The position numbers and the translations under genes are program-made. Below are positions 4,162 through 26,332 of a stretch of 27,218 nucleotides of DNA, one piece after another. The notes beneath the pieces are model-generated. The model saw nothing but the letters and a program-made list of their open reading frames with translations. It was not told the origin of the DNA and did no database searches. This stretch comes from a bacterium. Lineage in GTDB: Bacteria; SZUA-182; DTGQ01. The DNA is taken from assembly GCA_040752695.1 (NCBI GenBank), contig JBFMGO010000084.1:1-27218 (forward strand), in the 5' to 3' direction. Position 1 is the stretch's first letter, and the number at the start of each line of letters is the position of its first letter.

Positions 4162-5340
4162 GTGAAAACATATGAAGAAATAAACGAGAAAATCAAGGAG
4201 GGGAAAGCTGTCGTAGTCACAGCCGATGAAGTATGTGATCTGGCTGATGCAGAAGGCATTAAGGCCGTTGCCGAAAAGGTCGATGTAGTTACAACGGCCA
4301 CCTTTGGACCGATGTGCTCATCCGGTGTCTTTTTAAATTTCGGGCATGCGGACCCTCCGGTCAAAATGAACAAGGTCTTACTGAATGACGTGCCCGCTTA
4401 TGCGTCTCTGGCTGCGGTGGATGCCTATCTGGGAGCTACCGCCATGTCGGAGACGGAAGGGATCGAGTATGGAGGGGGGCATGTGATCGAGGATCTTCTG
4501 GCAGGAAAGGTCATCCGCCTGGAGGCAGAAGGCTACAAAACGGACTGTTATCCAGGAGAAATGGTGAAAGCCGAGATTACCCTGGAAAGTATCAATCAGG
4601 CCATATTGCTCAACCCCCGCAACGCCTATCAGAACTATACGGCTGCAACCAATTCCTCGGCCAGGACGCTGCATACCTACATGGGCACCCTGTTGCCCAA
4701 GTTTGGAAATGTCGCCTATTCCACCTCCGGCCAGCTCAATCCGCTGATCAATGATCCGGAATACCGCACGATCGGCCTCGGTACGAAAATTTTTCTGGGC
4801 GGAGGAGTAGGGCACGTCCTCGGAGAGGGAACCCAGCATAATCCACATCAGATTCGGGCCGTCAATAAAGTTCCGCTCAGCAGTGCCGGAACCTTGATGC
4901 TCATGGGCGATCTGAAGCAGATGAACCCACGCTATATCCGGGGAGCGACCATAAAAAAGTACGGTGTAACTCTTATGGTGGGCGTTGGCATTCCGATTCC
5001 CGTGCTGGATGAGGGGATAGCCGAGTCAGTATCCATTCGGGACAAGGATATTTTTACGACTATTTACGATTACAGCGTGGAAAAGTTATCCAAGCCGACC
5101 TATGGCAGGGTTAATTATCAGGAATTGAGGTCCGGGTCAGTCCAGATTAATGGAAATCGGGTGCCGGCAAATTCCGTCTCCAGCCTTTTTATGGCCAGAG
5201 AAATTGCCTCAATCTTAAAAGATTGGATCAGGCGGGGTGAGTTTTTCCTGGTAGAGCCGATTCAGCTCCTCTCGCGCGATACCCGATTCAAGAACTTACC
5301 GCAAAAAGAAGGATCTAAAAAGGACGGCTTAAAGTTATGA
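4162..5340 (+). CDS. Homocysteine biosynthesis protein / L-aspartate semialdehyde sulfurtransferase (DUF39, MA1821/MJ0100 family), without CBS domains
   Basis: KTYEEINEKIK.GKAVVVTA, VDVVTTATFGPMCSSG, NPRNAYQNY, HTYMGTLLP, NDPEYRTIGLGTKIFLGG. Confidence 0.92.
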   Translation: MKTYEEINEKIKEGKAVVVTADEVCDLADAEGIKAVAEKVDVVTTATFGPMCSSGVFLNFGHADPPVKMNKVLLNDVPAYASLAAVDAYLGATAMSETEGIEYGGGHVIEDLLAGKVIRLEAEGYKTDCYPGEMVKAEITLESINQAILLNPRNAYQNYTAATNSSARTLHTYMGTLLPKFGNVAYSTSGQLNPLINDPEYRTIGLGTKIFLGGGVGHVLGEGTQHNPHQIRAVNKVPLSSAGTLMLMGDLKQMNPRYIRGATIKKYGVTLMVGVGIPIPVLDEGIAESVSIRDKDIFTTIYDYSVEKLSKPTYGRVNYQELRSGSVQINGNRVPANSVSSLFMAREIASILKDWIRRGEFFLVEPIQLLSRDTRFKNLPQKEGSKKDGLKL

Positions 5341-5747
5341 CAGTCACCAGAAGAATTGTTTTGACCTTTCCGGCTAACCTCGTGGAAGATACAGCTATTT
5401 ATCACCTCATAAAGGACTATGACCTTATCGTCAACATCCTGCGTGCCAAGATCATACCGAAAGAGGGCGGGCGAATCGTTCTGGAACTGCGGGGGAAAGT
5501 CGAGAACATCAAAAAAGGGGTGAATTTCCTCGAAAGCAAGGGCATTGGTGTCAAATCTCTGGCCCAGGACATTCAACTCAATGAGGATAGGTGCGTCAGT
5601 TGCGGCATGTGTATGGCCGTATGCCACCAGAAAGCTTTATCCTTAAATCCGGTCTCATGGAAGATAGAGTTCAACCGGGATGACTGCATCTTATGCGAAC
5701 AGTGCGTAACGGTTTGCCCCCTGAAGGTAATCCAGGTGTCCTTTTAA
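5337..5747 (+). CDS. NIL-domain 2x[4Fe-4S] ferredoxin (MA1822 family), partner of DUF39
   Basis: YDLIVNILRAKI (NIL domain), CVSCGMCMAVC and CILCEQCVTVCP; ATGA overlap with the upstream gene. Confidence 0.92.
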   Translation: MTVTRRIVLTFPANLVEDTAIYHLIKDYDLIVNILRAKIIPKEGGRIVLELRGKVENIKKGVNFLESKGIGVKSLAQDIQLNEDRCVSCGMCMAVCHQKALSLNPVSWKIEFNRDDCILCEQCVTVCPLKVIQVSF

Positions 5748-5869: not shown

Positions 5870-6955
5870 TTGCAGTCCTGGCGATTACTCGATTTAGCTG
5901 CCTACAATGCCTATGCAAACATGGCTATTGATGAGGCCGTGCTGAGAGCTTGCATCCAGCAAAAAGGCTCTCCGGCAACCATCCGGTTTTATACCTGGGT
6001 TCCACCGGCTGTTTCAATCGGACGTTTGCAGAAAATCGGAGGGAATCTCGATCTTGCTCAAGCCAAAGAGCTTGGTCTTGATGTCGTGCGAAGGCCAACC
6101 GGAGGAAGAATGGTGTTGCATAAGGGAGATGTTACCTACTCCCTCATTTTTACCGAGAATAATCCTGTCATTCCCAGGGGGATTCTGGCCAGCTACCAAA
6201 AGATAAGCCAGGCTGTTCAGCGCGGACTATGGCTTTTAGGGATACCAGCACAGATAAGTCTGGAGCGGAAAGCCAGTCATTCTCCTTTTTGCTTTTCAGG
6301 GGTGGCAAAACACGAAATTCTTGTTCACGGAAAGAAGATCATCGGTAATGCCCAAAGGAGAGAAAAAGGCGCCTGTTTGCAGCAGGGCTCAATGATGGTG
6401 GAAGACCAGCAGGCAGTGGTCCGCCGGTTGCTTTCTTGCGCCCGGTATTCTTCATTCCGGCAGGGTTTCCCGAATCCGGCTGAAGGTGCGAATCCGGCTG
6501 AAGGTGCGAATCCGGCTGAAAATGCGAACCTGGCTGAAAATGCGAACCCGGTAAGCAACGGGAACCCGGTAGACAGCGGGAGACCGTTAGACAAGGGAAT
6601 CCTGGCCAGGGGAGCGAACCTGTCCGGTGAAGCGAATCTGGCAGAGGGGCTGAACCCGGCAGGGGAGTCCAATCTTTCGGCAACTGCGGATCCGGCCAAA
6701 GGACTAAGCCGCTCCTGGGCGCTCGGATCGAATCGAAACGGCTGTGGAATGCCGGAATTTATCTCTCTCGAGGAGGTATTTTGTAGTCCCGTTGCTGTAT
6801 CCCTGATCAAGGAGGCCCTGATCCGCGGATTTGAAGAAACGTTTCACATCTCATTTACTTACGGTTCATTGACTGACTGGGAGGAAGAAGAGGCCGCAAG
6901 ACTTATTCAGGAAAAATACTCCCGGGATCTATGGAATAAGGAGGGCCATGTGTGA
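5870..6955 (+). CDS. Lipoate-protein ligase A / LipM-like octanoyltransferase with internal repeat insert
   Basis: NMAIDEA, TIRFYTW..PAVSIG, VVRRPTGGRMVLH, CF, GKKIIGNAQRR, LQQGS, C-terminal EKY...WN. Confidence 0.9.
   Translation: MQSWRLLDLAAYNAYANMAIDEAVLRACIQQKGSPATIRFYTWVPPAVSIGRLQKIGGNLDLAQAKELGLDVVRRPTGGRMVLHKGDVTYSLIFTENNPVIPRGILASYQKISQAVQRGLWLLGIPAQISLERKASHSPFCFSGVAKHEILVHGKKIIGNAQRREKGACLQQGSMMVEDQQAVVRRLLSCARYSSFRQGFPNPAEGANPAEGANPAENANLAENANPVSNGNPVDSGRPLDKGILARGANLSGEANLAEGLNPAGESNLSATADPAKGLSRSWALGSNRNGCGMPEFISLEEVFCSPVAVSLIKEALIRGFEETFHISFTYGSLTDWEEEEAARLIQEKYSRDLWNKEGHV
6473..6706 (+). repeat. About 13 in-frame 18-bp tandem units encoding (NPAEGA)-like hexapeptides
   Basis: AATCCGGCTGAAGGTGCG twice, then progressively diverged units. 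Confidence 0.9.
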
Positions 6956-7534: not shown

Positions 7535-9637
7535 ATGAGCGAAAAAAAATTCCATTCGCCGGTCTTGACGCTGGTGGTGACCGGGCTTCTCCTAGGCCAT
7601 ATCACAGCAGGGTATCTGATTGCATCCAAAAGCGTGTGTTTTGCTGGACCCTCACTCTATGTCTCTCCTCAATCCAAACCACCCTGGGGAGATGAAGATA
7701 GCTGGGGATCAAGGCCCGTTATCGTGGGAGACCGCTTATACCTTTATACCCTTACCCCGGCGGGAAAGTGCCGACTGTGGCGAGGTGGTCCGAAAAAGGA
7801 GGATGACCCGAATCTGGTCTGGAGCGAGATTAACCTGACAGATTTAAACAGTCCTGATATTACGGCTCTCGGCTCGCATAAAGAACATTTATATGTGGCT
7901 ACCAGGGAAGGAGACAGCCCTCGTTTGAGGTTGAGAGAAGACCCCAATCAAGGGGAATGGATACAGGTCAACCCTTCTGAGATGAATTCAGGCACGATAA
8001 CCTCGATCTCTTCATTCAATGACTACCTCTACCTGGGAGTGACGGTAAAGGGGACCGAAGACACAGCGGACTCAGTCCGGCTATGGCGATCCAAGGAAGC
8101 TAAATCGACCAAAAAGGTTGCTTCTACTGATTGGAAGCAGATCGGCCAGAGTCACGCAGGTCTTATCACCACCAGCAACTTTCAGGAGTTTGAAGACAAG
8201 CTGTATCTTGGGGTTAAAAACACTCAAGATAAAGCTGAAGTCTGGATGCTGGACAAAAGCGACAGTGACCGCACTATCTTTTCACCCTGGTCTGAAGGAG
8301 CGCTGAGCATTGCGGATATGGCTGCCTCGGACCATACCCTCTCTGCGATTATGCTGGATAATGACGACAACGGCAGTGCCGGCGGCAGTGGCAGTGACAA
8401 TAAAAGCACCTGCCGGATATGGTCTATGGCCTGGAATGAGGCGAACTTCAGCGAGGCGCCTTCCTCCTGGGAAAAAACCATCGACCCTAATCAATCCGCA
8501 TCCCTTTCGATGGAGAGCCTGGGCTCTTACCTTTTTCTTGGCTTTAACAATACTGACAAGAAAATGGAGATATGTCAGGCATATCATGATCCGAACCAGG
8601 TGAATCAAGAGAACAAAAAGGATCAGGAAGATACGAAAGAAAAGCGGCTTGAGCCGATTACCGTCAATGACATGAGTAAACCCCAGGAGCAGACTGCCCT
8701 GGATGCGTCCTCAAACCATTTTCGCTGGCTCTATGCTGATCACAATCAGGGGTACCTCTATCTGGGCACCGAAGACCCCAACCAGGGGATCACCCTGTGG
8801 AGATCAAACAAACTTCCCATTATCACGATCATCTACGATCCTTCTAAAATCGATGCTAAGAATCCTGAAACCGGGAAAGCTTACCCGTATACCTTCCTGG
8901 GCACTTTCAATTCGAAAGTGCAGGAGAACATGTCGGTTGAGTGGAAGTCTACCAAAAAGGGCTCTTATACGGTTGACCTGATACAGTTGAAAGATCCGAA
9001 TGATGCGATCAGTCAGGATCCCGACTTTTCAATCCCCAGCCAGCAAGTCGATAAGGAAGCAAAGGAGATCCGTACCATCCTTCCTGTCCAAAAGCAGGGG
9101 ACCTATGTTGTTGAAATTGCCTGGCATCCAGACCCAAACTCTTCGGTTGAAAATAAGGAGCGGTATCCTGTACTGTTTTCCCTTATTAATGATACCGCCC
9201 CTCCGGAGACAGCACCTTCAGTGATCAGTGTAACCTCGGGAAACGAAAAGTTATTGGTGAAATGGAGTGAAGCCCACGACAAACTCTCAGGCGTGAAACT
9301 GTATCGGGTTCAATGGGCACAAGTGCCGCCGGAGGTCGATGCCGGTTCGGACCCCAACACTATTGAATTTCCCGGCGAGAACATCCATGAGCAGTCAAAA
9401 GATGAAAACTGTAAATATACCATTGACAATCTTATCAACGGTCAGAGATACGTAGTATTGGTTTCCGCAATAGATGCTGCGAATAACGCCACTTCCCGGT
9501 CGGCTATAACGGGCAAAAGCTTTGGAACTCCGGTCAAGGGTCTGGGTCTGACCGACCTTGTGGATGAGAGCGGCGGATGCTTTTTGGAAACCGTACGGAA
9601 AGATCAGATCATATTTCGAAGGAGAGAGAAGAGGTAA
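7535..9637 (+). CDS. Secreted protein: probable beta-propeller N-terminus, fibronectin type III domain, C-terminal GGCF motif (MXAN_2561-like position)
   Basis: N-terminal hydrophobic signal; repeated LYLG..N/T..LWRS blades; DTAPP..SGNEKLLVKW..Y.V.W..IDNLINGQRYVVLVSAIDAANN (FN3); ends ESGGCFLETVR. Confidence 0.75.
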   Translation: MSEKKFHSPVLTLVVTGLLLGHITAGYLIASKSVCFAGPSLYVSPQSKPPWGDEDSWGSRPVIVGDRLYLYTLTPAGKCRLWRGGPKKEDDPNLVWSEINLTDLNSPDITALGSHKEHLYVATREGDSPRLRLREDPNQGEWIQVNPSEMNSGTITSISSFNDYLYLGVTVKGTEDTADSVRLWRSKEAKSTKKVASTDWKQIGQSHAGLITTSNFQEFEDKLYLGVKNTQDKAEVWMLDKSDSDRTIFSPWSEGALSIADMAASDHTLSAIMLDNDDNGSAGGSGSDNKSTCRIWSMAWNEANFSEAPSSWEKTIDPNQSASLSMESLGSYLFLGFNNTDKKMEICQAYHDPNQVNQENKKDQEDTKEKRLEPITVNDMSKPQEQTALDASSNHFRWLYADHNQGYLYLGTEDPNQGITLWRSNKLPIITIIYDPSKIDAKNPETGKAYPYTFLGTFNSKVQENMSVEWKSTKKGSYTVDLIQLKDPNDAISQDPDFSIPSQQVDKEAKEIRTILPVQKQGTYVVEIAWHPDPNSSVENKERYPVLFSLINDTAPPETAPSVISVTSGNEKLLVKWSEAHDKLSGVKLYRVQWAQVPPEVDAGSDPNTIEFPGENIHEQSKDENCKYTIDNLINGQRYVVLVSAIDAANNATSRSAITGKSFGTPVKGLGLTDLVDESGGCFLETVRKDQIIFRRREKR

Positions 9638-10344
9638 AAGAGAGCATGACCATGAGATCGAGATTTTCTTTATTGGTACTGTGGTGCTTTGTATGGGTGT
9701 TTATTTCTACTCTTTTGTTTTCTCCCGGGCATAAAGTCATGGCCGAAAGCCTGCAGGGAAGTTATTCCGCTTCTCTGTGGGGAGGATATTACCTGCCGAA
9801 GAATTCCACCTTCCAGGAGGTTTACTCCGATGACGGGGAATTCGCCGGATTTTTAGAATTTTCCAAAACCTGGAGCAGCCAGATCGTGGTAACCCTTGGC
9901 GGGGGCTGGATCCATTTCAGTGGACGTCAGGTCAATCCTAACGCATCCCAGATCGATACCGACAATGAAAAGTACAGTGCTGATAGTGCCAAGATGACTC
10001 TGGTTCCCGGATATTTACAATTCTCATACCTCTTTCGCTATTCACAGGAGCAGAAATTAGTTCCGTATCTGGGCGCCGGTCTGGATGCCTGGGGATTCCA
10101 GGAGAAAATGAAAGACGGCGATACCGTCACGGGTGCCAAGTACGGCTACCATGGCCTGGTCGGGGTCCGGTTACTCCTGGATTGGCTCGATCCCGATGCA
10201 GCTCAAAGTTCGCTTCAGGAGTATGGCATTGATAATACTTACTTGATTCTTGAGGCACGCTGGCTGCGGATTGACGATTTTGGTGGAATTGGACTGGACT
10301 TAAGCGGTCCACTCTACCGCGTAGGATTGCTGTGGGAATTTTAA
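9577..10344 (+). CDS. Outer-membrane beta-barrel protein, MXAN_2562-like family (true start probably the ATG at 9646 or 9652)
   Basis: Signal peptide, LVPYLGAG, GAKYGYHG..G..LLLDWLDP.AA....EYGIDNTYL, GLDLS, terminal beta-signal VGLLWEF. Confidence 0.8.
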   Translation: MLFGNRTERSDHISKEREEVKESMTMRSRFSLLVLWCFVWVFISTLLFSPGHKVMAESLQGSYSASLWGGYYLPKNSTFQEVYSDDGEFAGFLEFSKTWSSQIVVTLGGGWIHFSGRQVNPNASQIDTDNEKYSADSAKMTLVPGYLQFSYLFRYSQEQKLVPYLGAGLDAWGFQEKMKDGDTVTGAKYGYHGLVGVRLLLDWLDPDAAQSSLQEYGIDNTYLILEARWLRIDDFGGIGLDLSGPLYRVGLLWEF

Positions 10345-13503: not shown

Positions 13504-14797
13504 TTACCACATTGTTGACGAACCTATAAGTATAATAATTATGGGATATAAGTCAGGTATAATAATCAGGTATAATAATAGAGGAGTTGAAAGGAAAGCA
13601 TCATTGTATGTACCCAGTAACAAAAATGCCCCTTCGAGAATCTCCCTTGACGATGAGAGGTGATTAACTGATGGAAATTAAAGAAATTAAAAGGATTATT
13701 AGGGAGGAATTGCCCAGGATAATGCAGACCGATGAGGAAATCGCACGGTTTATTCTGCGCCTTACCTCTCAATATTATGCAGGGAAACCTGAAACTGAAG
13801 ATCGGTTTGATCGTATGCTCAAAGAGCTCCAACGGGATAGGGAAGAGCAGACCCGTAAGTGGGATGAACAAAACAAAAAATGGAAAGAAGAGAAAGAGGA
13901 GCAGAACCGCAAGTGGGATGAACAAAACAAAAAGTGGTGGGAGAATCAAAAACATATTGATAAACAATATGAAGAGATCAAGTCTTTAAACCGGAAACAT
14001 GATCAGACAATTGGAGCCCTCGGTGCCCGTTGGGGCCTTTATATCGAGGAATCATTTAGAAATGCCCTGGCGGGTATACTCAAAGATTCTTTTTCGGTCC
14101 AGGTAACACATATTACTGAATTTGACGACAAAGGAGAAGTGTTTGGTAGACCGGATCAGGTAGAAGTAGATCTGATTATTAAAAACGGGCTCTTGATTAT
14201 CAGTGAGATTAAATCCTCTATGAGCAAATCAGATATGTATACCTTTGAGAGGAAGGCCAGATTCTATGAAAGATCTCATGAATGTAAGGCTAACCGGCTC
14301 ATAGTTATTTCCCCGATGGTAGATGATAAAGCAAAAAATGTTGCTTCACAGTTAGGAATTGAAGTATATTCCCATGCTGAAGATGTGAAAAATATATGAT
14401 GCTTTTAATGCTTATCCAGTGAAAATTAATTGCCGTCAGCCGGGTATTTTGGATTATCGACCAATAGTGACTATCTCGCGCATACCGGTACCTGGCGGAT
14501 TCATGAAAACCGGTATCGCTGATCCTCGGATGATACAGAAAAATGATAGAGAAAAATAATCGTTTGACTTCCTGGAAGATTCGGATATGATTAAAAGAAA
14601 TGCCGGTATCTATCTCCAAAGCTTTGCTCAAGCCGTCTTAAGCGAGTATTATGCAAGAGGCAAGGACGGGATAATAAGAGCTGTTCCGAAGGACTGCACT
14701 TACCATAAAGACCGTATCGTATATTAATTTTCTACATCTCATTGTTAATTATTAGGATACTGTTTGGCATAAGGCCACTTATTGAGCCTATAAGAAG
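13491..14797 (+). repeat. Degenerate ~40-bp direct repeat pair bracketing the hisS-aspS insert (13491-13530 and 14760-14794)
   Basis: CTGTTTGGtttgattaCCACaTTgTTGAcgaaCCTATAAG versus CTGTTTGGcataaggCCACTTaTTGAgCCTATAAG. Confidence 0.6.
13671..14399 (+). CDS. Coiled-coil plus PD-(D/E)xK nuclease-fold protein (DUF3782-like)
   Basis: IGALGARWG..E.SFR, G.VFGRPDQVEVD.II, EIKSSMSKSD, F.RK..FYE, LIVISPMVD; 54-bp internal duplication (EEQ.RKWDEQNKKW) at 13842 and 13896. Confidence 0.85.
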   Translation: MEIKEIKRIIREELPRIMQTDEEIARFILRLTSQYYAGKPETEDRFDRMLKELQRDREEQTRKWDEQNKKWKEEKEEQNRKWDEQNKKWWENQKHIDKQYEEIKSLNRKHDQTIGALGARWGLYIEESFRNALAGILKDSFSVQVTHITEFDDKGEVFGRPDQVEVDLIIKNGLLIISEIKSSMSKSDMYTFERKARFYERSHECKANRLIVISPMVDDKAKNVASQLGIEVYSHAEDVKNI

Positions 14798-16850: not shown

Positions 16851-17675
16851 TTAATCCACCTTGAGGACTTTTCGCACCACCAGGCCAAAGGAGATGGCCA
16901 GAATGGGAAGCACCAGCAGCCAGTGCATGTTCCAGCCGAAGAGGATGCATTTGAAGTGTTTTGGCTGATAACCGATTTCAATGCTCTCAAGGAGCCCTTT
17001 TTTGGGGAGTGCAGGTTCAGCGGCATTGACAAAAGAGGCCCAGAATCCCTGCCTTATGAGCTCTGGGCAGAAAGGATCGGAGATCTTGCCGATGACGATC
17101 TCTTTGGTGTAATTCTCGTCGCAGGTCTGAATGCCTATCCGATACTTACCCGCTTCGGATGCCCGCAATTGCCAGCTTACTTCGTTTTCCCCTCCAAGGC
17201 GAAGAGCAGGCGTAAGCGCCTCGAATCCTTCGGGCAGGGTAAGCAGCGGGTCGGGACGCCGGTCAGCGTTCTGACCATAAGTGACTTTTACATCGAATGG
17301 TTCCCCAGGCATGATGGGATCATACCCATAGCGCAGGTTTATCTGAGAGAGTGTGACCAGAAATAAGAGAATAACAGGAACCGCTCCTTGCGTATTATAG
17401 GCGATATACCGGAAATTATTTTTCAGAATTTCCTTCTGGGCTTTTAATACTTCACGGAAATCGTCTTTGTAGATCCTGATTTCCAGAAAATGGATCTTGA
17501 TCTGGTTTTTTACCGCTTTAATTTTTTTCTGGTTGGATACATATTTGAAGATAATGACAACAATCGTGCCCATGACAAAACAGATAGCCATAAAACCCCA
17601 AAAGGGTTCAAGGCTTTGAAAGGGCATGGCTACCAGATCCAGAAATTGCCCGATGAATTGTAAAATTGTCAGCAT
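16851..17675 (-). CDS. Membrane protein, DUF106/EMC3/TMCO1 (Oxa1 superfamily)-like, with an inserted soluble beta domain
   Basis: TM1, K-rich coiled coil (SNQKKIKAVKNQIK...KAQKEILK), TM2, about 120-aa loop, C-terminal W..HWL......FG..VRK.LKV TM. Confidence 0.6.
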   Translation of the reverse strand: MLTILQFIGQFLDLVAMPFQSLEPFWGFMAICFVMGTIVVIIFKYVSNQKKIKAVKNQIKIHFLEIRIYKDDFREVLKAQKEILKNNFRYIAYNTQGAVPVILLFLVTLSQINLRYGYDPIMPGEPFDVKVTYGQNADRRPDPLLTLPEGFEALTPALRLGGENEVSWQLRASEAGKYRIGIQTCDENYTKEIVIGKISDPFCPELIRQGFWASFVNAAEPALPKKGLLESIEIGYQPKHFKCILFGWNMHWLLVLPILAISFGLVVRKVLKVD

Positions 17676-17759
17676 GATGGCCTCATACTCTGTAAAATAA
17701 ATATAGGTTGCCCTTTTACAGGGAATTCTACCTTATGTGAGCCTGAGCATAGTCTTATG

Positions 17760-17954
17760 TCAGGAGATATAGCCAAGCCCTTGTAATTTTTTCTTCAGAT
17801 CTTCCTGCGACTCAGAAGACTCGTCCTCTTCCCGCATTTCTTTTTCCAGCACATGGCTAATGAATTCTTCGACTGAAGAATACCCTTTTCGGCTTGCATA
17901 TTCTTCGGCACGATTCAATAAGTCCTTATCGATTTTTACCTTACTCCCGAACAT
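17760..17954 (-). CDS. Small CopG/RHH-like protein ending in an L..LGY motif
   Basis: AAGGAG RBS; KVKIDKDLLNRAE..A...GYSSVEEFI.HVLEK then EDLKKKLQGLGYIS. Confidence 0.8.
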   Translation of the reverse strand: MFGSKVKIDKDLLNRAEEYASRKGYSSVEEFISHVLEKEMREEDESSESQEDLKKKLQGLGYIS

Positions 17955-18111
17955 ACTGAAAACTCCTTATTTAACTGATTATTCCTTTGATTCTGCTGGT
18001 AATAACTGGAGATAACTTTTCCACAAATAGTATTGACGATAAGGTCTATCTCCTTATCTATAGGTGACTTACTCCCTACCGTGTCCACCAAGGCGTTATA
18101 TCTCCCGCAAT

Positions 18112-20190
18112 CTAAAATATCACCCTGCCGGTCATTTTCGGTTGCTTTTTCATCTTGAATTCGTTGAGGATCGTAGGAGCCAGATCGATAATGGCCGGAT
18201 CATCGACCTTGATCTTCTTATTGGCCAGAACAATCCCCGGTACCAGTTGGCCGGCTATGCAGTGATCGCCGCTCCACTTGCTCGTGTTGTCGCCCAGGAT
18301 ATCCGCAGGCGCCTGTCCCAGGGCTGTCCACCACGAAGCGCGGTATCCCCGGTTGTAGCCGATGATCAGGTCAGGGGCTTTATCCCGGTATTCCCCCTGA
18401 TAGGCTGTCGCCGGTACATCCACGTAGCTGATAACCTGCTGGCCGTTGTTCGGGTCGCGGTAATTCAAAAGTCCCTGCCGGATTTCTTCGAGCAGCGCCT
18501 TGGCTCCTTGGCCAGGATCGACGATTCCATGACCTTCCCTTCCCTTGAGATTGAGATAAAGGGCGTTCAAGCCCATGGCGTAGGCTTTGGTGCGCTTCCA
18601 GTTCACATTTTCGAAAAACTCGCCACTTGTCCTTTTATATTCATCGACATAGGCCATATATCCATTCCGGTGCAGCCAGGTGTTCAGGTTAAAATATCGG
18701 CGATAGCTCGTAAATCCATGGTCTGAAAGGATCAAAAGGGTAGTGCCCGGGTCCATCTCTTTCATGGTTTCACCCACGATTTTATCCATCTTCCGATACA
18801 GTTCAGGAATGACCTGGCCGTACTTTTTGTTATTCTCCTCGGTATATCCGGGGAACTGGGGGTCCATACAGCCGGTAAACATGTGCTGGATGGTGTCGGT
18901 AGCGGAAAAGTAACAGAACAAAAGTCCTGTTTTTTGTTTTTTCAGGTTGGCCAGCTCCAGTCTGTACATTCTCATCCGCTCGGCTTGTGAGACTTCGCTC
19001 TGCTGCAGGAACTCCTCCTCATTCAGCCGTTCTTCATTCAAGGCCCAGGTATCCTCCGGTATCCCCTGCGTGTGAAACAGGCCGATTTTCTCTGCCAGTT
19101 CCCTGGCGTAGTCTTCAGGGCAGGAAATAGTGAAGGGGGGCTCACGAGGATCGACATTGACCGGGCTTAAATAGAGTTGGAACACGGGGCGCACCTGCTT
19201 GAGATAAAAGCGGCCAATGCCTGCGGCTTTGGAGAAACTCATCTTAAAGGTCAGCGGAAGCCATCCGGACCAATCTCCCTCTTTCAGAATAAGGTTTTGA
19301 TCGCCGAACTTGAGTCTGGCTATAGGATTTTTCGGATCGAGCGTGATCGTTAACGGTATTTTGGATATTGGGCGATCTTCCTTGAAGGTATTGACCGGTC
19401 CCTGGATCTCGGTTTCAATTGTATTGTTTTTGACCTCTACCTGATAAACCCTGCCACCCTGTTCTTCTCCTCCCTCACCGGCTTTCGAAGTATAGAATTG
19501 AAAAGTTCCATAGGTGCCGATGAGGTCCGGAGTTCCCATCCCGCTCAAGGATTTACCCTTATGCTGCACCGGCGGGAAATTGGAGGGAACCTGAAGAATC
19601 GTGGATGAGATACCACCCTCATCCAGGTATTCCCAGAAGGTTTTCCCTTTCCGGTAAAGCTTTGCCTCTACCTTGGAAACAGGAATAACCCAACGCAAAA
19701 GAGGGATGGTTATTTCCTTTTTGGGAGGGCAGATCTCGCCAATGGAAAGGTATGGCAGGTAGGTATTGGGATCTCTGGCAATAAAGTCGTAAATATTGGT
19801 GCCTCCGGGATCCTGACCGGTGATGAAGGTGGCCCAGGCGACCGGGCTTTGGGGTGGAATCGTGGTAGCAAGGGGCTTGAAATCACCGGTTTCGGCCAGC
19901 TTTTTGAAATTGGGGAGCATCCCAGCGTCCATATATTGTCGTAATAATTGCGGATCCATACCATCGAATCCCAGGACAATCATTTTAGTGCCGGCCTCGG
20001 CCACCGCCGTAGTGCAGGACCAGGCAAAGGAGAGCAACAACCCAAAGAGCACTGCCAGTATGATCAACCTCTGAAGTATGAGGTGTGATTGTTCCTGTTT
20101 TTTGATGAATCTATCTCTTTTCATACCTTTCCTCTCAATCGAAAGCTTTTCCTCGCCTTCTCTTCGAATCACAATCTTTTCCTCAATCAA
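18112..20190 (-). CDS. Alkaline phosphatase superfamily (type I phosphodiesterase/NPP-like) protein, exported; start may be downstream
   Basis: VLGFDGMD, TTIPPQSPVAW (Ser nucleophile position), D.IQHMF, LSDHGF, APDLI.GY..GYR, WSGDHC, IIDLAPTIL. Confidence 0.9.
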   Translation of the reverse strand: MIEEKIVIRREGEEKLSIERKGMKRDRFIKKQEQSHLILQRLIILAVLFGLLLSFAWSCTTAVAEAGTKMIVLGFDGMDPQLLRQYMDAGMLPNFKKLAETGDFKPLATTIPPQSPVAWATFITGQDPGGTNIYDFIARDPNTYLPYLSIGEICPPKKEITIPLLRWVIPVSKVEAKLYRKGKTFWEYLDEGGISSTILQVPSNFPPVQHKGKSLSGMGTPDLIGTYGTFQFYTSKAGEGGEEQGGRVYQVEVKNNTIETEIQGPVNTFKEDRPISKIPLTITLDPKNPIARLKFGDQNLILKEGDWSGWLPLTFKMSFSKAAGIGRFYLKQVRPVFQLYLSPVNVDPREPPFTISCPEDYARELAEKIGLFHTQGIPEDTWALNEERLNEEEFLQQSEVSQAERMRMYRLELANLKKQKTGLLFCYFSATDTIQHMFTGCMDPQFPGYTEENNKKYGQVIPELYRKMDKIVGETMKEMDPGTTLLILSDHGFTSYRRYFNLNTWLHRNGYMAYVDEYKRTSGEFFENVNWKRTKAYAMGLNALYLNLKGREGHGIVDPGQGAKALLEEIRQGLLNYRDPNNGQQVISYVDVPATAYQGEYRDKAPDLIIGYNRGYRASWWTALGQAPADILGDNTSKWSGDHCIAGQLVPGIVLANKKIKVDDPAIIDLAPTILNEFKMKKQPKMTGRVIF

Positions 20191-22360
20191 AGAGCGGCTT
20201 TCCCTCTACTAAAGAAGGAGCTTGCAAATTGAATTCTCGTAAGATAGTTGGAGCGATATCAATTATACGGGGTGTGGCAGCCTTGATTTTCCGGCTGCAA
20301 AAAAGAACTCCCGGGACTGCCTCCGGATCAATGCAGTGATCGCCGCTCCAGCTCTTTGTATTATCTTCGAATATGACAGTATTGACCTTGCCCACCACTG
20401 AGTCCCAGGACATCCGGTATCCTTTTGCATAACCGATGACCAGGTCCGGGCCATTATCGGTATACGGTCCCTGATAAATGCTCTTGCAATCGTACACCTG
20501 ATTGATGGCGACTTTCCCTTCGTCCTTGTCCATCAGCCCGGTCAGCCGGAGCGAAATTTCTTCCTTCAATCGCTTGAATTCAGCGCCCGGCTGAACAATG
20601 CCTCTGGACTCCCGGCCCTTGAGATTGACGAATATCCCTCCAAGACCCAGCGCATAGGCCTGCGTTTTTGACCAGTCCACCTGGCTGAACCATTCACCGC
20701 TCTCTTTGGCCCCTTCCTTCAGGGCAAGGAACCGGTTCAGGTAGAGCCAGGAATTCAGGTTGACGCAACGGCGGAACGACTTAAACCCATGGTCGGACAT
20801 GACGATTAAAAGGGTATCGCGGTCGATTTTCTGGCGCACCCGGCCCAGGAGATCATCCATGTTTCGATATAACTCTTCGATGGTGTTTTCATATCCCGGA
20901 TCGCCAGCCACCTGGTGAGTGGGGTGATCCTTTTCCAGATAGCGCCAGAACATGTGCTGAATTCGGTCTGTGGTGTCGAAGACGCAGGCGCATACCCCTT
21001 TGCGCACCTTGTCGAGCTCGTGGAAGAACATCTTTTCCCGCTCTTTATGATTTGCATAGGCCTGGTCAAGAAAGCTTTTTTCATTCAAAACCCGCTCGTT
21101 CAATGCCCAGGTATCTTCAGCCAGGCCCAGCGTGGCATAGCTATTTATAACCTTTGACAGATACATGGCGTAGACGAAGGGGTGTGAAATCGGCAGCACC
21201 GGCTTTTCAGGATCGATATTGATGGGAGTTACATACATTTCAAATTCCGGCGTTATTCTTTGAATCAGAAAGCGGCAGATACCGGATATTTTTTTTCTGC
21301 CTATCGGGAAAGGAATCCGGATCCAGGGAGAGAACTCTCCCTGCTTCAGGGAGAATTTCTGGCCCGCTATCTGTAACTCTGCATCATAGCCACCTTCAGT
21401 TCCGCCCCTTTCAGCTCCACCACCTTTCGTTCCGGCGCCGTTCGTTCCGGCATTCTTGCCGCCGGCATTCCTGGACAGGAACACCTCGAAGGGAATCCGG
21501 CTTTCCGGCGAGCCTTTCTTTTGTGGATCTTCCGGTCCATAGAGGAAGGAGGAGATTTTCCCTCCCTGGTTCACAACCTTGAAACAGACCCCACCCGTGC
21601 GCTTTTGCAGCAGGTCGTCACAGGTGGTATAAAAACTGAAAGTTCCTTGAGTCCCTTTCAAATCAGGGACACACATGGCAGACAGAAGCCTGCCGGCAAA
21701 CTTTACTGGTGGAAAAGTGATCGGTACCCGGATAATGGAGCTGCAAATGCCGACGTCTCCCAGAATTTCCCAGAAGGCCCGGCCCTTTTTCAGTGACTTG
21801 ATTTTCGGCCCGCTCAACTTCCCGGCAGATTTTTGGATGTCCACCGAAGAGAGGATCGGCAGGTAGGTTTTTACATCGCGGGTGAAGAAGTCAAAAATAG
21901 CGTGCCTGGCAGGAGTCATGCCAGTAGCAAAGGAAGACCAGGCCACTGGAGAAATGGCCGGGCAGGTAGTCTGAAGCCTGCTGTAGCTGCCCTCTTCCTT
22001 CAGTGCAGAAAAATGCGGCAAAATGCCCTTTTGCATATACTGTTCAGTCAGGACCGGATCGAGGCCGTCAAGTCCCAGGATCACTACCTTCCTGGTTTTG
22101 CTGTGGGAATTTTTATCAAAATATTGCCTGTACTTGAATCTGCGCTTGACAGACTGCCAAAAGAGCCGTACAGGCCAGAACAGAATGATTAAAAATGCAA
22201 GAAGAAACGTAGCCAAAAGAATGAAGAACGAACTGAAGAACGCTATCCCGGCTCCCGGGCCAATATAAGCGGATGCATCCCGAACCAGGACAGGAAAAAA
22301 GAGAACCACCGCTGCCAGCAGCCAGACTGCAACAACCATAGAGCTTTTTAATTTTTTCAC
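20183..22360 (-). CDS. Alkaline phosphatase superfamily (NPP-like) protein, membrane-anchored paralog with AYIGPG N-terminus
   Basis: Signal peptide, ASAYIGPGAG plus TM, ILGLDGLD, TTCPAISPVAW, DRIQHMFW, MSDHGF, WSGDHC. Confidence 0.9.
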   Translation of the reverse strand: MKKLKSSMVVAVWLLAAVVLFFPVLVRDASAYIGPGAGIAFFSSFFILLATFLLAFLIILFWPVRLFWQSVKRRFKYRQYFDKNSHSKTRKVVILGLDGLDPVLTEQYMQKGILPHFSALKEEGSYSRLQTTCPAISPVAWSSFATGMTPARHAIFDFFTRDVKTYLPILSSVDIQKSAGKLSGPKIKSLKKGRAFWEILGDVGICSSIIRVPITFPPVKFAGRLLSAMCVPDLKGTQGTFSFYTTCDDLLQKRTGGVCFKVVNQGGKISSFLYGPEDPQKKGSPESRIPFEVFLSRNAGGKNAGTNGAGTKGGGAERGGTEGGYDAELQIAGQKFSLKQGEFSPWIRIPFPIGRKKISGICRFLIQRITPEFEMYVTPINIDPEKPVLPISHPFVYAMYLSKVINSYATLGLAEDTWALNERVLNEKSFLDQAYANHKEREKMFFHELDKVRKGVCACVFDTTDRIQHMFWRYLEKDHPTHQVAGDPGYENTIEELYRNMDDLLGRVRQKIDRDTLLIVMSDHGFKSFRRCVNLNSWLYLNRFLALKEGAKESGEWFSQVDWSKTQAYALGLGGIFVNLKGRESRGIVQPGAEFKRLKEEISLRLTGLMDKDEGKVAINQVYDCKSIYQGPYTDNGPDLVIGYAKGYRMSWDSVVGKVNTVIFEDNTKSWSGDHCIDPEAVPGVLFCSRKIKAATPRIIDIAPTILREFNLQAPSLVEGKPLFD

Positions 22361-22422: not shown

Positions 22423-22450
22423 AGTTTACCCTGTTTTTCGCCTGTGTCAA
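22423..22450 (-). promoter_or_regulatory. Candidate sigma70 promoter for the AlkP operon
   Basis: Minus strand TTGACA-16 bp-TAAACT, about 60 bp upstream of the start. Confidence 0.5.
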
Positions 22451-24010: not shown

Positions 24011-26332
24011 TCATGGCCTTAGACTGGCGATAAAACACCCGAACGTATTTTTACCGGATGAATCCTTGGCTGTGCCCGGTATCGCAATCGAAATATCCCT
24101 TCGAAACAGAATGGGAGGATCGGATGCATCATAGACGGTAATGATATAGATATATTTCGTATTTTCCTGGACCTGGTGATCGGTATAGGCAATAACAGAT
24201 GACGATTCTACTGGTGTTTCCTCACGAATAACGGATGACGATTCAGACCCTTCGATTTTTCTGTCAATCCGATAAGCCGCGATGCTTGAGTCAACCTCAA
24301 ATGAAACCTCAACCGAAAAAGGGGCGGCAGCGGTGTTGTATGCGGCCTTGAAGTTATGAAAAGGCAGAGGTTGAGTCGTTACCTGGATGATCTCCGAAGA
24401 GGAAATTTCTGTATTTTTGCTGATGAATTTCACCTGGTAAAGGTATGGTTGATTTTCGTCGAGGGAATGATCGCTGTCTTCCCAGGAATTGCTGTCCTGG
24501 TAGGGAGTGTCCTGATCGTTGCTGTCCCGATAAGGGAATGAAAACTCCTTCGATTGGAAAACCATCGTTTGATACTCCCCTTCTCGTCCCCGAAAGATCT
24601 GATAGTGGCCAGTTTCCCTGACGGGTTCAAAGACCAGTCGTACCGAGAGGTAGCGATCAGCGCTGATCGTCGAGGTGTAGTCCGTAATGCGGGGTGCAGA
24701 GGGTAAAGACCCAATGGGCACCGCTGTCAGGCAGTATCTGGATGTCTGCATATCCAAAGGGATGTTAATGGGGGAGGACAGATTGATGGGGATGATGACC
24801 AGCTTTGAATAGTCCGGGTTCTCCTGAAATGAGAAATCATACGTCCCGTCATGATTTGTACCTGGGGGAATGAGTTGAGGCGTACCGAACTGAGGAGAAG
24901 ATTCCGGCAAGGATCGATAGGAACCAGCCGGGATGGCCAGAGCGATAAGATCCGCCGGGCCCTCGTTATCGAAATGGATGCGAAGAGCTCCCGACGAAGG
25001 TTTCTCGAAAGGGACATATTGACAGCTCAAGGGTGCAAGTTGATTTGACAAGCTGTCATCATGGCGCGGGATAGGGTAGTTCTTTCCCTCCTCATAATCC
25101 CGGCGCAGGTTGGCCAGTTTAAAGTGAATAAATTCCTGAGTAAAGGACGTTTTTCCAGCCGTGAACTCTTTCACCGACTGATCGATAGCCATAAGAACAT
25201 TGTACGATGAGGGAAGAACCTGTTCGAAAATGGACTTAATCATATCGTTTCCAAAGCGCTCGGAGAGAAATTTAGCCCAGATGACCCCTCCGTATTCAAA
25301 GCCTGGGCAGGAAGAGCCTTTCCCGTACAGGGCCATCAGGGAGTCACCGGGATAGTCGAACCAGCCCTTATTTCGCGAACCAAACCCTTGAGCGGAAGAA
25401 AGCGTAAAATAGGGCTCGCCGGTATCCCACTGGCCGTTATCGTTTTCGTCCGTATAGGGCCAGCCAAGGTAGTTGCGGTGATCATCGACCGTGGGGTAAA
25501 CTGCATCTTCGATCCAGACGGCGGTATTTTCCTCCCACCATGTACTATCTACCGGCGACTTCGGCCAATGGTCATAGCCCGCCTGGACCACGTGAAAGAA
25601 TTCATGAGCTGCCGTTACCTTCATAGCCCCATTTTCCCATCCTTCCGGGTCAAGGTTTTCTCTGAAGCCAGAGTAATTATTCTTCACCATGATATACAGC
25701 CCGGCGCCATCGGCGCTGGTAACTCCATAGGCCTCGATTCCCAGGATGAAAACCTCGGTCTTTCCGCCACCGGCTGGACTGTAGTGCAGCGTATCGGTCA
25801 GGTAAGCATAAGCGTATTCAAAATAGCCTCCAAAATCGCTTACGTATTCAGGGACGGTCTCGGGATCTGCATCTGAATCCTCAACTGCATCTCCATAGTT
25901 GTTATCGAGGGTATAATAGAGGCGAAAATGCCCTTCCGGGGTATCATAATGCAGGGGTGTAAGCCCATAGTAATCCTTATCTCCGAAATCCGTAGGGCGG
26001 TGGAGGATGAACTGGTTTTCCGGGTTCAAGAGCTCTGGATGTTTCATCGCCTGCCGAAGCAAGGGGGTGGCGCATTTTCGTATGGATGACGATGGAAGGA
26101 GCAGGGAACCTGATCGCAGCACACTCTGCTTTTGCGGTCGGAAAAGGCTGGAAATTTCCCGGTTCAATTCCTCACGAAACAGTTCCGGTGATGATTGCTG
26201 CGCCTGCACGCTTTGGTTCGCACATGAGAGAAGAAGACAAAGGCCGGTGAGGAAAAACTTCAGATATCTAGCCTTGACTTTTAATGCTTGGGCGAAATTG
26301 TTCATGCCATTCCAGATAGTTCGAGTTGTCAT
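24011..26332 (-). CDS. Secreted zinc metalloprotease, MXAN_6640-like family, with FN3-like domains and C-terminal GCFI motif
   Basis: Signal peptide; KCATP, TPEGHFRLYYT, VPEYV, KVTAAHEFFHVVQ.GY, WWEE.TAVW.ED; ends FGCFIASLRP. Confidence 0.8.
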   Translation of the reverse strand: MTTRTIWNGMNNFAQALKVKARYLKFFLTGLCLLLSCANQSVQAQQSSPELFREELNREISSLFRPQKQSVLRSGSLLLPSSSIRKCATPLLRQAMKHPELLNPENQFILHRPTDFGDKDYYGLTPLHYDTPEGHFRLYYTLDNNYGDAVEDSDADPETVPEYVSDFGGYFEYAYAYLTDTLHYSPAGGGKTEVFILGIEAYGVTSADGAGLYIMVKNNYSGFRENLDPEGWENGAMKVTAAHEFFHVVQAGYDHWPKSPVDSTWWEENTAVWIEDAVYPTVDDHRNYLGWPYTDENDNGQWDTGEPYFTLSSAQGFGSRNKGWFDYPGDSLMALYGKGSSCPGFEYGGVIWAKFLSERFGNDMIKSIFEQVLPSSYNVLMAIDQSVKEFTAGKTSFTQEFIHFKLANLRRDYEEGKNYPIPRHDDSLSNQLAPLSCQYVPFEKPSSGALRIHFDNEGPADLIALAIPAGSYRSLPESSPQFGTPQLIPPGTNHDGTYDFSFQENPDYSKLVIIPINLSSPINIPLDMQTSRYCLTAVPIGSLPSAPRITDYTSTISADRYLSVRLVFEPVRETGHYQIFRGREGEYQTMVFQSKEFSFPYRDSNDQDTPYQDSNSWEDSDHSLDENQPYLYQVKFISKNTEISSSEIIQVTTQPLPFHNFKAAYNTAAAPFSVEVSFEVDSSIAAYRIDRKIEGSESSSVIREETPVESSSVIAYTDHQVQENTKYIYIITVYDASDPPILFRRDISIAIPGTAKDSSGKNTFGCFIASLRP

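Follow-up and report, generated by a model that had tools for sequence, protein, structure and literature searches.

Proteins of the DUF106 family (PF01956) belong to the Oxa1 superfamily and have been described as archaeal and eukaryotic in the excerpts consulted of two papers (PMC5868721, PMC8675477). Those members of the superfamily whose function has been characterised act as insertases, their substrates being simple proteins of which only small parts are translocated (PMC5868721). A second point of reference is a gene cluster for sulfate activation in the archaeon Pyrococcus yayanosii, which the available part of its description gives as copG, ATP sulfurylase, DHH pApase, type I phosphodiesterase and adenosine 5'-phosphosulfate (APS) kinase (PMC8268124). 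The present work deals with a four-gene cassette of a bacterium, located at 16851..22360 on the minus strand of contig JBFMGO010000084.1 (assembly GCA_040752695.1); the whole contig, 27,218 nt long, was analysed and is referred to below as the window. The cassette encodes two paralogous enzymes of family PF01663, here named AlkA and AlkB, a small protein with a conserved C-terminal Leu-Gly-Tyr (LGY) tail, and a membrane protein of the DUF106/Oxa1 type. Together, the four genes make up a membrane module that is widely conserved across phyla, and this module likely helps to decorate the cell envelope. Literature searches turned up no publication that deals with the cassette, with a DUF106-type protein from bacteria or with the LGY tail; no characterised pathway was matched, in agreement with the original prediction, made from the DNA letters, which knew of no described function.

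Conservation of the cassette and its two enzymes

The four open reading frames (ORFs) follow one another in the same orientation, on the minus strand, where the original prediction had placed them. The first encodes AlkA (22360..20183, 725 aa), and the second AlkB (20190..18112, 692 aa from a TTG start, or 670 aa from an ATG at 20124). They are followed by the gene for the small protein (17954..17760, 64 aa) and by that for the membrane protein (17675..16851, 274 aa). Using the membrane protein as bait, 24 related loci were collected from one-per-species genomes labelled KSB1, Calditrichaceae or Caldithrix, Deferribacteres, Cytophagia or Bacteroidota, Pseudomonadota, or carrying no label. The small gene directly precedes the membrane-protein gene in every one of them. 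Where the contig reaches far enough, AlkA and then AlkB stand upstream with the full order kept in 19 of 21 loci, the exceptions having only an AlkA-type gene (L034) or only an AlkB-type gene (L035). All four genes are likewise kept in genomes G007 and G037, G036 has a looser arrangement, and only the pair of small and membrane-protein genes was found in the 10 kb examined of G015. The joint occurrence of the four genes in other phyla, on which the original prediction depended, is thus borne out.

Both enzymes match PF01663, with 94.6 bits for AlkA (E 1.2e-26) and 119.8 bits for AlkB (E 2.5e-34) at a gathering cut-off of 23, and they share 40% identity over 649 residues (E 5e-161). The motifs DG.D, SPVAW, SDHGF and WSGDHC are present in both and invariant in 21 AlkA-type and 16 AlkB-type sequences, so that the paralogy and the common catalytic motifs noticed at the outset are well founded. 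At the level of single positions, D98, S137, D465/H469, D523/H524 and D674/H675 are kept in 20 to 21 of the 21 AlkA-type and in all 16 AlkB-type sequences; we take them to be the ligands of two metals and the nucleophile, by homology with enzymes of the nucleotide pyrophosphatase/phosphodiesterase (NPP) type. The large beta-rich insert that had been predicted for both paralogs was also recovered. The Pfam match covers only residues 92–167 and about 403–617 and is split by the insert, which the AlphaFold model shows as a strand-rich region of some 200 residues (about 159–380) common to both proteins. When the AlkA insert alone was used in a structure search of the Atlas, it matched only the same subfamily. 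The AlkA orthologs are 48–76% identical to the AlkA of the window and the AlkB group only 37–42%, which indicates that the duplication is older than the sampled lineages.

The alkaline-phosphatase fold of AlkA, modelled at a mean predicted local distance difference test (pLDDT) score of 89.2, is of the NPP type. Its nearest solved relatives are the Xanthomonas NPP (7n1s_B, E 9.5e-11), ENPP1 (1.8e-10), phosphonoacetate hydrolase (1ei6_A, 1.9e-10) and SPAP/PafA, at an identity of 10–12%, E values of 1e-10 to 1e-9 and a TM-score, normalised to the target, of about 0.6. A single-sequence search with AlkB against PDB sequences returned no solved relative. Compared with this NPP/PhnA/PafA clade (Xac NPP 7n1s/2gsn, ENPP1, 1ei6 and SPAP/PafA), the two enzymes belong to the same Pfam family, find their nearest folds there and keep the two-metal set and the position of the nucleophile. 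They differ from it by a Ser instead of a Thr as nucleophile, by the subfamily-specific insert and by the low identity. In addition, AlkA has a membrane anchor with a catalytic domain predicted to be cytoplasmic, and AlkA and AlkB would form an inside/outside pair. The formylglycine sulfatase motif C/S-x-P-x-R was found in neither paralog, I-S-P-V-A-W standing in its place, and a match to the Pfam family Sulfatase stayed below its cut-off (16.3 vs 25 bits). As a separate observation, residues 302–322 of AlkA (window 21395–21457) form a glycine-rich low-complexity loop (NAGGKNAGTNGAGTKGGG...) with a pLDDT below 50 that AlkB does not have.

Predicted topology and the membrane protein

The two paralogs carry contrasting targeting signals. 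The N-terminal anchor of AlkA (residues 1–90, 22091..22360, minus strand) consists of a signal-like stretch ending DASA|YIGPGAG, one transmembrane (TM) helix and a stretch rich in Lys and Arg; the model has N-terminal helices at 2–29 and 35–83. A signal-like stretch, YIGPGAG and then a single hydrophobic helix recur in all 22 AlkA-type sequences, and in 20 of these a small-x-small pattern closes the signal-like stretch immediately ahead of YIGPGAG. Past the helix, the next 25 residues contain 5–10 Lys and Arg against 0–3 Asp and Glu in the 22 sequences, and by the positive-inside rule this basic stretch places the catalytic domain of AlkA in the cytoplasm. AlkB-type proteins have one N-terminal hydrophobic signal (17/17), with a lipobox-like Cys in 10 of the 17 including the AWSC of the window. 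The catalytic domain of AlkA is therefore predicted to be cytoplasmic and AlkB to be exported or periplasmic. The difference in topology was part of the original prediction and, judged by sequence rules, it recurs throughout both groups.

The membrane protein is modelled (pLDDT 88.8) with helices at 24–46, 49–68, 73–116 and 252–271 and a strand domain at about 120–251, that is, as a three-helix membrane core with a coiled coil predicted to be cytoplasmic and an inserted immunoglobulin (Ig)-like domain. As a single sequence it reached no Pfam family, PF01956 included, and among its 26 orthologs PF01956 was matched by only two at E values up to 1 (best E 0.0025). A search of PDB sequences with the single sequence gave at best E 0.22, to the archaeal YidC-like protein MJ0480; a profile of the 26 orthologs matches the same protein (5c8j) at E 1.6e-9 over positions 4–118. 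When the model was compared with 48,161 chains, the best match was chain 8 of 7tut (Z 11.7, root-mean-square deviation 2.9 over 135 residues spanning 20–274), a value to be read with the reservation that, for helical proteins, the mere arrangement of helices can give Z scores as high as 13. The second row followed at Z 8.7, YidC of B. halodurans (3wo7_A) at 7.9 and the cytosolic domain of Get1 at 7.5. The 7tut chain is part of the multipass translocon of the endoplasmic reticulum; the structure search does not name it, and we presume it to be TMCO1. An Atlas model of the membrane protein has TM-scores of 0.68–0.71 to archaeal EMC3_TMCO1 clusters, and Foldseek against the PDB returned only Ig-like chains, at E of about 0.01.

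These comparisons support the membrane protein as a bacterial relative of the DUF106/EMC3_TMCO1 branch of the Oxa1 superfamily, as far as profile and model similarity allow, and the superfamily named in the original prediction stands. With MJ0480/Ylp1, TMCO1, EMC3 and Get1, all of the PF01956 type, it has in common the profile match to the first and, tentatively, the likeness of the models. It differs from them in being bacterial, in failing PF01956, in its place within an enzyme cassette and in the domain of 130 residues between TM2 and TM3. This Ig-like beta domain (residues 118–250, 16926..17324, minus strand) is predicted to be periplasmic, and Invasin- and BatD-like rows appeared for it at low TM-score in the Atlas search. 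The predicted cytoplasmic coiled-coil hairpin (residues 47–95, 17391..17537, minus strand) has an invariant Y69-x-D71-D72 tip and takes its orientation from the distribution of Lys and Arg, which in the predicted topology fall on the side of the coiled coil and the C-terminus. In the model, the second half of the helical hairpin 49–116 appears to re-enter the membrane. Besides the tip residues Y69, D71 and D72, the invariant positions are found at the outer ends of TM2 and TM3 (R115/Y116 and H251/W252). The family is large, with 3182 representative clusters at E <= 0.001 and at least 1003 at E <= 1e-30. Since a canonical YidC is encoded elsewhere in the same genome, the cassette protein is an additional protein of the Oxa1 type.

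The LGY tail, sulfate activation and the genomic surroundings

The small protein is 46–91% identical across 25 orthologs. Its pattern is strand-helix-turn-helix-like; it also has an acidic linker, and its C-terminus reads K-x-L-x-G-L-G-Y-[IL]-S (LGYIS in the window). Residues G24, Y25, S27, E30, H34, E37, L57, G59, L60 and Y62 are invariant in 26 sequences. It is predicted to be ribbon-helix-helix (RHH)-like from this pattern and from faint family resemblances: the N-terminus of NikR matches it at E 6.5e-4, far below the cut-off, and among the 26 members weak matches were found to RHH_1 (1/26), a NikA-like family (3/26) and DUF7557 (16/26, best 0.0013).

The tail itself (LKKKLQGLGYIS, 17763..17798, minus strand) is common to seven other proteins of the same genome, designated G000. 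A scan of its 51,157 ORFs of at least 50 aa for a terminal [KR]L[KRQ]xLGY[ILV] found eight; seven control motifs, permuted or otherwise altered, gave no match at all. Two of the others stand in one row on contig C26, namely a second RHH-like protein of 76 aa (6303–6533) and an APS kinase (7782–8543). The remaining five (C29 31126–31974, C22 33996–35879, C65 10529–11779, C70 1014–3248 and C93 19671–21749) comprise an ABC-type ATPase, a soluble PF01663 protein, a soluble sulfatase-like protein and two membrane-anchored multi-TM sulfatase-like proteins. The catalytic domain and tail of the C70 protein are predicted by hand to be periplasmic; if so, the tail would act on both sides of the membrane.

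Which protein the tail might contact can be approached through its distribution. A tailed APS kinase occurs in 16 of 41 relatives, and a PF01663-like gene is adjacent in all 16 tailed loci versus none of 14 untailed ones. The same division is seen in the related loci that bear the cassette, where PF01663 lies beside the APS kinase in 4/4 tailed versus 0/6 untailed cases, with one cut by a contig end. A role of the DUF106-like protein as the general receptor of the LGY tail was considered and can be ruled out, as nine of the 16 genomes with a tailed APS kinase gave no match to the membrane-protein profile (five of them 90–95% complete, the others 59–89%); the tail is thus independent of that protein. 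Because it follows cytoplasmic PF01663 enzymes, AlkA is the likeliest partner of the small-protein tail within the cassette, an assignment drawn from correlation only. For the tailed membrane-anchored sulfatase-like proteins, the family is too expanded for such a comparison with the cassette (up to 18 matches per genome), and in G008, a genome without the cassette, a match runs to the tail. A related arrangement is the tail docking of CysE and CysK, which likewise involves a short conserved C-terminal peptide on pathway proteins together with a regulator-like protein; the LGY tail differs in that it also ends PF01663 and sulfatase-like proteins.

The row on C26 (6303–9921, locus L019) connects the tail to sulfate activation. 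It runs from the tailed RHH-like protein through ATP sulfurylase (Sat) and the tailed APS kinase (CysC) to a PF01663 protein of 465 aa. In other phyla, Sat and CysC are neighbours of the cassette itself, lying 1–4 kb downstream, after a methyltransferase gene, in 11 of the 24 related loci. These clusters further contain LGY-tailed sulfatase-like proteins, membrane-anchored sulfatase-like proteins, heparinase II/III-like proteins, LGY-tailed DUF2061, glycosyltransferases, a deacetylase and PMT_2. At L032 (11721–14357), ATP sulfurylase and PF01663 are fused in one ORF of 878 aa, as confirmed by Pfam, and L042 (11761–14397) probably carries the same fusion, a single 878-aa ORF covering both tblastn matches. 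Among the 41 relatives, an APS kinase was found in 10 of the 11 genomes with the membrane protein versus 15 of the 30 without it, although these genomes are kin and not independent. The product of the two activating enzymes, 3'-phosphoadenosine 5'-phosphosulfate (PAPS), is presumably destined for sulfation in the own genome, which is 96.6% complete and gave no match to the PAPS-reductase family in a search whose controls were recovered 14/14. Also in the window, at 4162–5747, a NIL-ferredoxin gene comes after the gene for HcyBio, which is assigned to homocysteine biosynthesis and the incorporation of sulfur; the two represent a route from sulfide to methionine, in keeping with the lack of a PAPS-reductase match. 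PF01663 proteins (29 matches in G000) and PF00884 sulfatase-like proteins are strongly expanded in the own genome and its relatives; a single sulfatase-like query gave 13 matches in G000 and as many as 18 in one relative.

The C26-type row is the only part of the system with a published counterpart, which is archaeal. It resembles the cluster of Pyrococcus yayanosii in its copG-type, Sat, APS kinase and phosphodiesterase genes (PMC8268124), a likeness that applies to C26 and not to the window. By comparison, no DHH family was found among the 13 C26 proteins scanned. The excerpted text of the archaeal study contains no mention of an LGY tail, of AlkA/AlkB or of a DUF106-like protein (PMC8268124).

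Regarding expression, the original prediction described a four-gene operon with its own promoter candidate and overlapping paralogs. The genes are there, and a sigma-70-like promoter candidate lies about 63 bases upstream of AlkA (22450..22423, minus strand; TTGACA-16-TAAACT, 10/12 matches). Promoter-like sites are not enriched in the region (12 versus 8.7 +/- 2.8 in shuffled sequences), so the site is no more than a candidate. The overlap of AlkA and AlkB amounts to 8 bases and requires the TTG start of AlkB; an 8-base overlap is likewise seen, under other start choices, in L029, L039 and L042. AlkB and the small gene are separated by 157 bases, and the small gene is preceded by a good AAGGAG ribosome site. 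In a same-genus relative (L025), two additional overlapping small ORFs are inserted at this point (8987–9337, 116 aa, and 9321–9722, 133 aa), which by eye resemble a putative nucleotidyltransferase/HEPN-type pair. Given the gap and this insertion, the four-gene operon is a candidate only. Further downstream, the stop of the small gene overlaps the start of the membrane-protein gene in L029 and L013, an arrangement of translational coupling. No inverted repeats were found as operator candidates in the gap between AlkB and the small gene or upstream of AlkA, and no Rfam family reached its gathering score in the window.

Elsewhere in the window, positions 100–2793 hold a Cas10/Csm1-like fragment (100–1710) and Cas6 (1822–2793), which belong to a type III CRISPR locus. 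A protein of the DUF3782 and PD-(D/E)XK nuclease family with a lysine/glutamate-rich repeat region is encoded at 13671–14399. At 24011–26332 lies a secreted-looking protein of 773 aa with an HExxH metalloprotease domain of the MXAN_6640 type (NCBIfam E 9.4e-36, below the cut-off).

Possible functions of the module

It is tentatively proposed that the module acts as a relay conveying an activated sulfate group from the cytoplasm to envelope polysaccharide on the other side of the membrane, a function that we regard as possible rather than probable. Ser137 of AlkA would accept the sulfuryl group of PAPS or APS, and AlkA would then load it onto a membrane carrier, for instance polyprenyl phosphate. 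The Oxa1-like protein might bring the charged head group to the other side through its hydrophilic groove, while its coiled coil and its Ig-like domain hold the two enzymes. On the outer face, AlkB would transfer the group to a glycan of the periplasm or pass it on to sulfatase-like transferases that are exported. The small protein may dock by its tail on the cytoplasmic PF01663 enzyme, either as an adaptor or as a regulator that senses the occupancy of the enzyme. The more specific version, in which the Oxa1 protein acts as a flippase and not as an insertase, and the periplasmic paralog sulfates envelope glycans together with LGY-tailed exported sulfatase-like transferases, is considered unlikely.

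The relay is suggested by the retention of one active site in both members of a fixed pair predicted to face opposite sides of the membrane, by the inability of PAPS to reach the periplasm, and by the fold of the third constant partner, which has a lipid-exposed hydrophilic groove. Lipid scrambling has been reported for insertases of this superfamily (PMC11047089). The relay of a phospho- or sulfo-group in the original prediction agrees with the sulfate-activation genes and the common LGY tail, and its sulfate version is retained here in conditional form. Comparable logic is known from the ArnC/ArnEF/ArnT, GtrA/GtrB/Gtr and LtaS/EptA-type systems, in which a carrier is loaded inside, flipped and unloaded outside. 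The module would differ from these in that a single hydrolase fold would supply, as paralogs, both the loader and the unloader, flipping would fall to an Oxa1-like protein, and the transferred group would be sulfate.

Several observations weigh against a sulfate relay. Enzymes of the NPP clade are known as hydrolases, and we know of no NPP-type sulfotransferase. No enzyme of polyprenyl-phosphate metabolism was found tied to the cassette. Ordinary sulfotransferases are present in the own genome, and in L029 one lies directly upstream of AlkA, so a second route of sulfation is not required. The cassette of the window is situated between glgC (upstream, same strand) and aspS (downstream, convergent), far from sulfate genes. 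In G006, a genome that is 97% complete and has the cassette on a contig ending inside the membrane-protein gene, no match was obtained to APS kinase, to ATP sulfurylase or to the PAPS-reductase/CysD/CysH family. Finally, the authors of the archaeal study speculate, in the part available, that the PF01663 phosphodiesterase of their cluster merely removes pyrophosphate (PMC8268124).

One alternative is a dedicated insertase with a regulator. The membrane protein would insert or chaperone the procoat-like N-terminal hairpin of AlkA, the RHH protein would be a transcription factor, and AlkA and AlkB would be independent hydrolases of cytoplasmic and periplasmic phospho- or sulfo-esters. An anchor made of a signal, a very short periplasmic loop and one helix, as found in all AlkA-type sequences, has the shape of the insertase substrates described in PMC5868721. 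A second RHH protein with the tail heads a separate Sat operon, as a regulator would, and the insertion in L025, toxin-antitoxin-like, parts AlkB from the small gene. Yet a canonical YidC is already present, and an insertase explains neither the conserved periplasmic Ig-like domain and the invariant tip of the coiled coil nor the strict pairing of paralogs on opposite sides, nor the translational coupling of the small gene to the membrane-protein gene. For these reasons it is regarded as conceivable and rather doubtful. That the four genes are chance neighbours without a joint function, for which the 157-base gap might speak, is contradicted by the synteny, namely by the 24/24 adjacency of the small and membrane-protein genes and the full order in 19/21 loci across distant lineages, and is extremely improbable.

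Two further explanations retain the PF01663 chemistry and dispense with sulfate transfer. A two-sided relay could carry a phospho-group, that is, a phospho-alcohol or phosphate, to a glycan or lipid. PF01663 enzymes are phosphodiesterases or pyrophosphatases, the nearest folds being Xac NPP, ENPP1, PhnA and PafA/SPAP, and both the lack of sulfate genes near the cassette of the window and the presence of the cassette without detectable sulfate activation in G006 agree with it. However, through its LGY tail the small protein is linked with APS kinase and with operons for sulfate activation, and Sat and CysC recur as neighbours of the cassette in other phyla, which makes a phosphate cargo quite unlikely. 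Even less can be said for a mere helper of sulfate activation, in which PF01663 enzymes would hydrolyse the by-products pyrophosphate and 3'-phosphoadenosine 5'-phosphate (PAP) and thereby pull PAPS synthesis at the membrane. It corresponds to the published speculation on the archaeal PF01663 gene (PMC8268124, in excerpt), and it gains from the Sat–PF01663 fusion and from the tailed APS kinase always standing beside a PF01663 gene. These observations, however, concern the short PF01663 type of 450 aa and not AlkA and AlkB, which carry the 200-residue insert that the short type does not have. Moreover, the removal of by-products would call neither for a paralog in the periplasm nor for a partner of the Oxa1 type, and a helper function of this kind is judged very improbable.

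The module presents a bacterial branch of the DUF106 type that is tied to a fixed pair of enzymes on two membrane faces and not to general protein biogenesis. If the sulfate relay is true, it would explain how bacteria could sulfate polymers beyond the cytoplasm, where PAPS does not reach, and the alkaline-phosphatase fold would gain a further, new catalytic function. In the more specific flippase version, it would be the first extracytoplasmic route of sulfation in bacteria and the first enzyme-coupled, non-insertase task for a protein of the Oxa1 family. Even if the relay fails, the module and its portable LGY tail, found on APS kinase, regulators and sulfatase-like proteins, represent undescribed envelope biology in many uncultured phyla.

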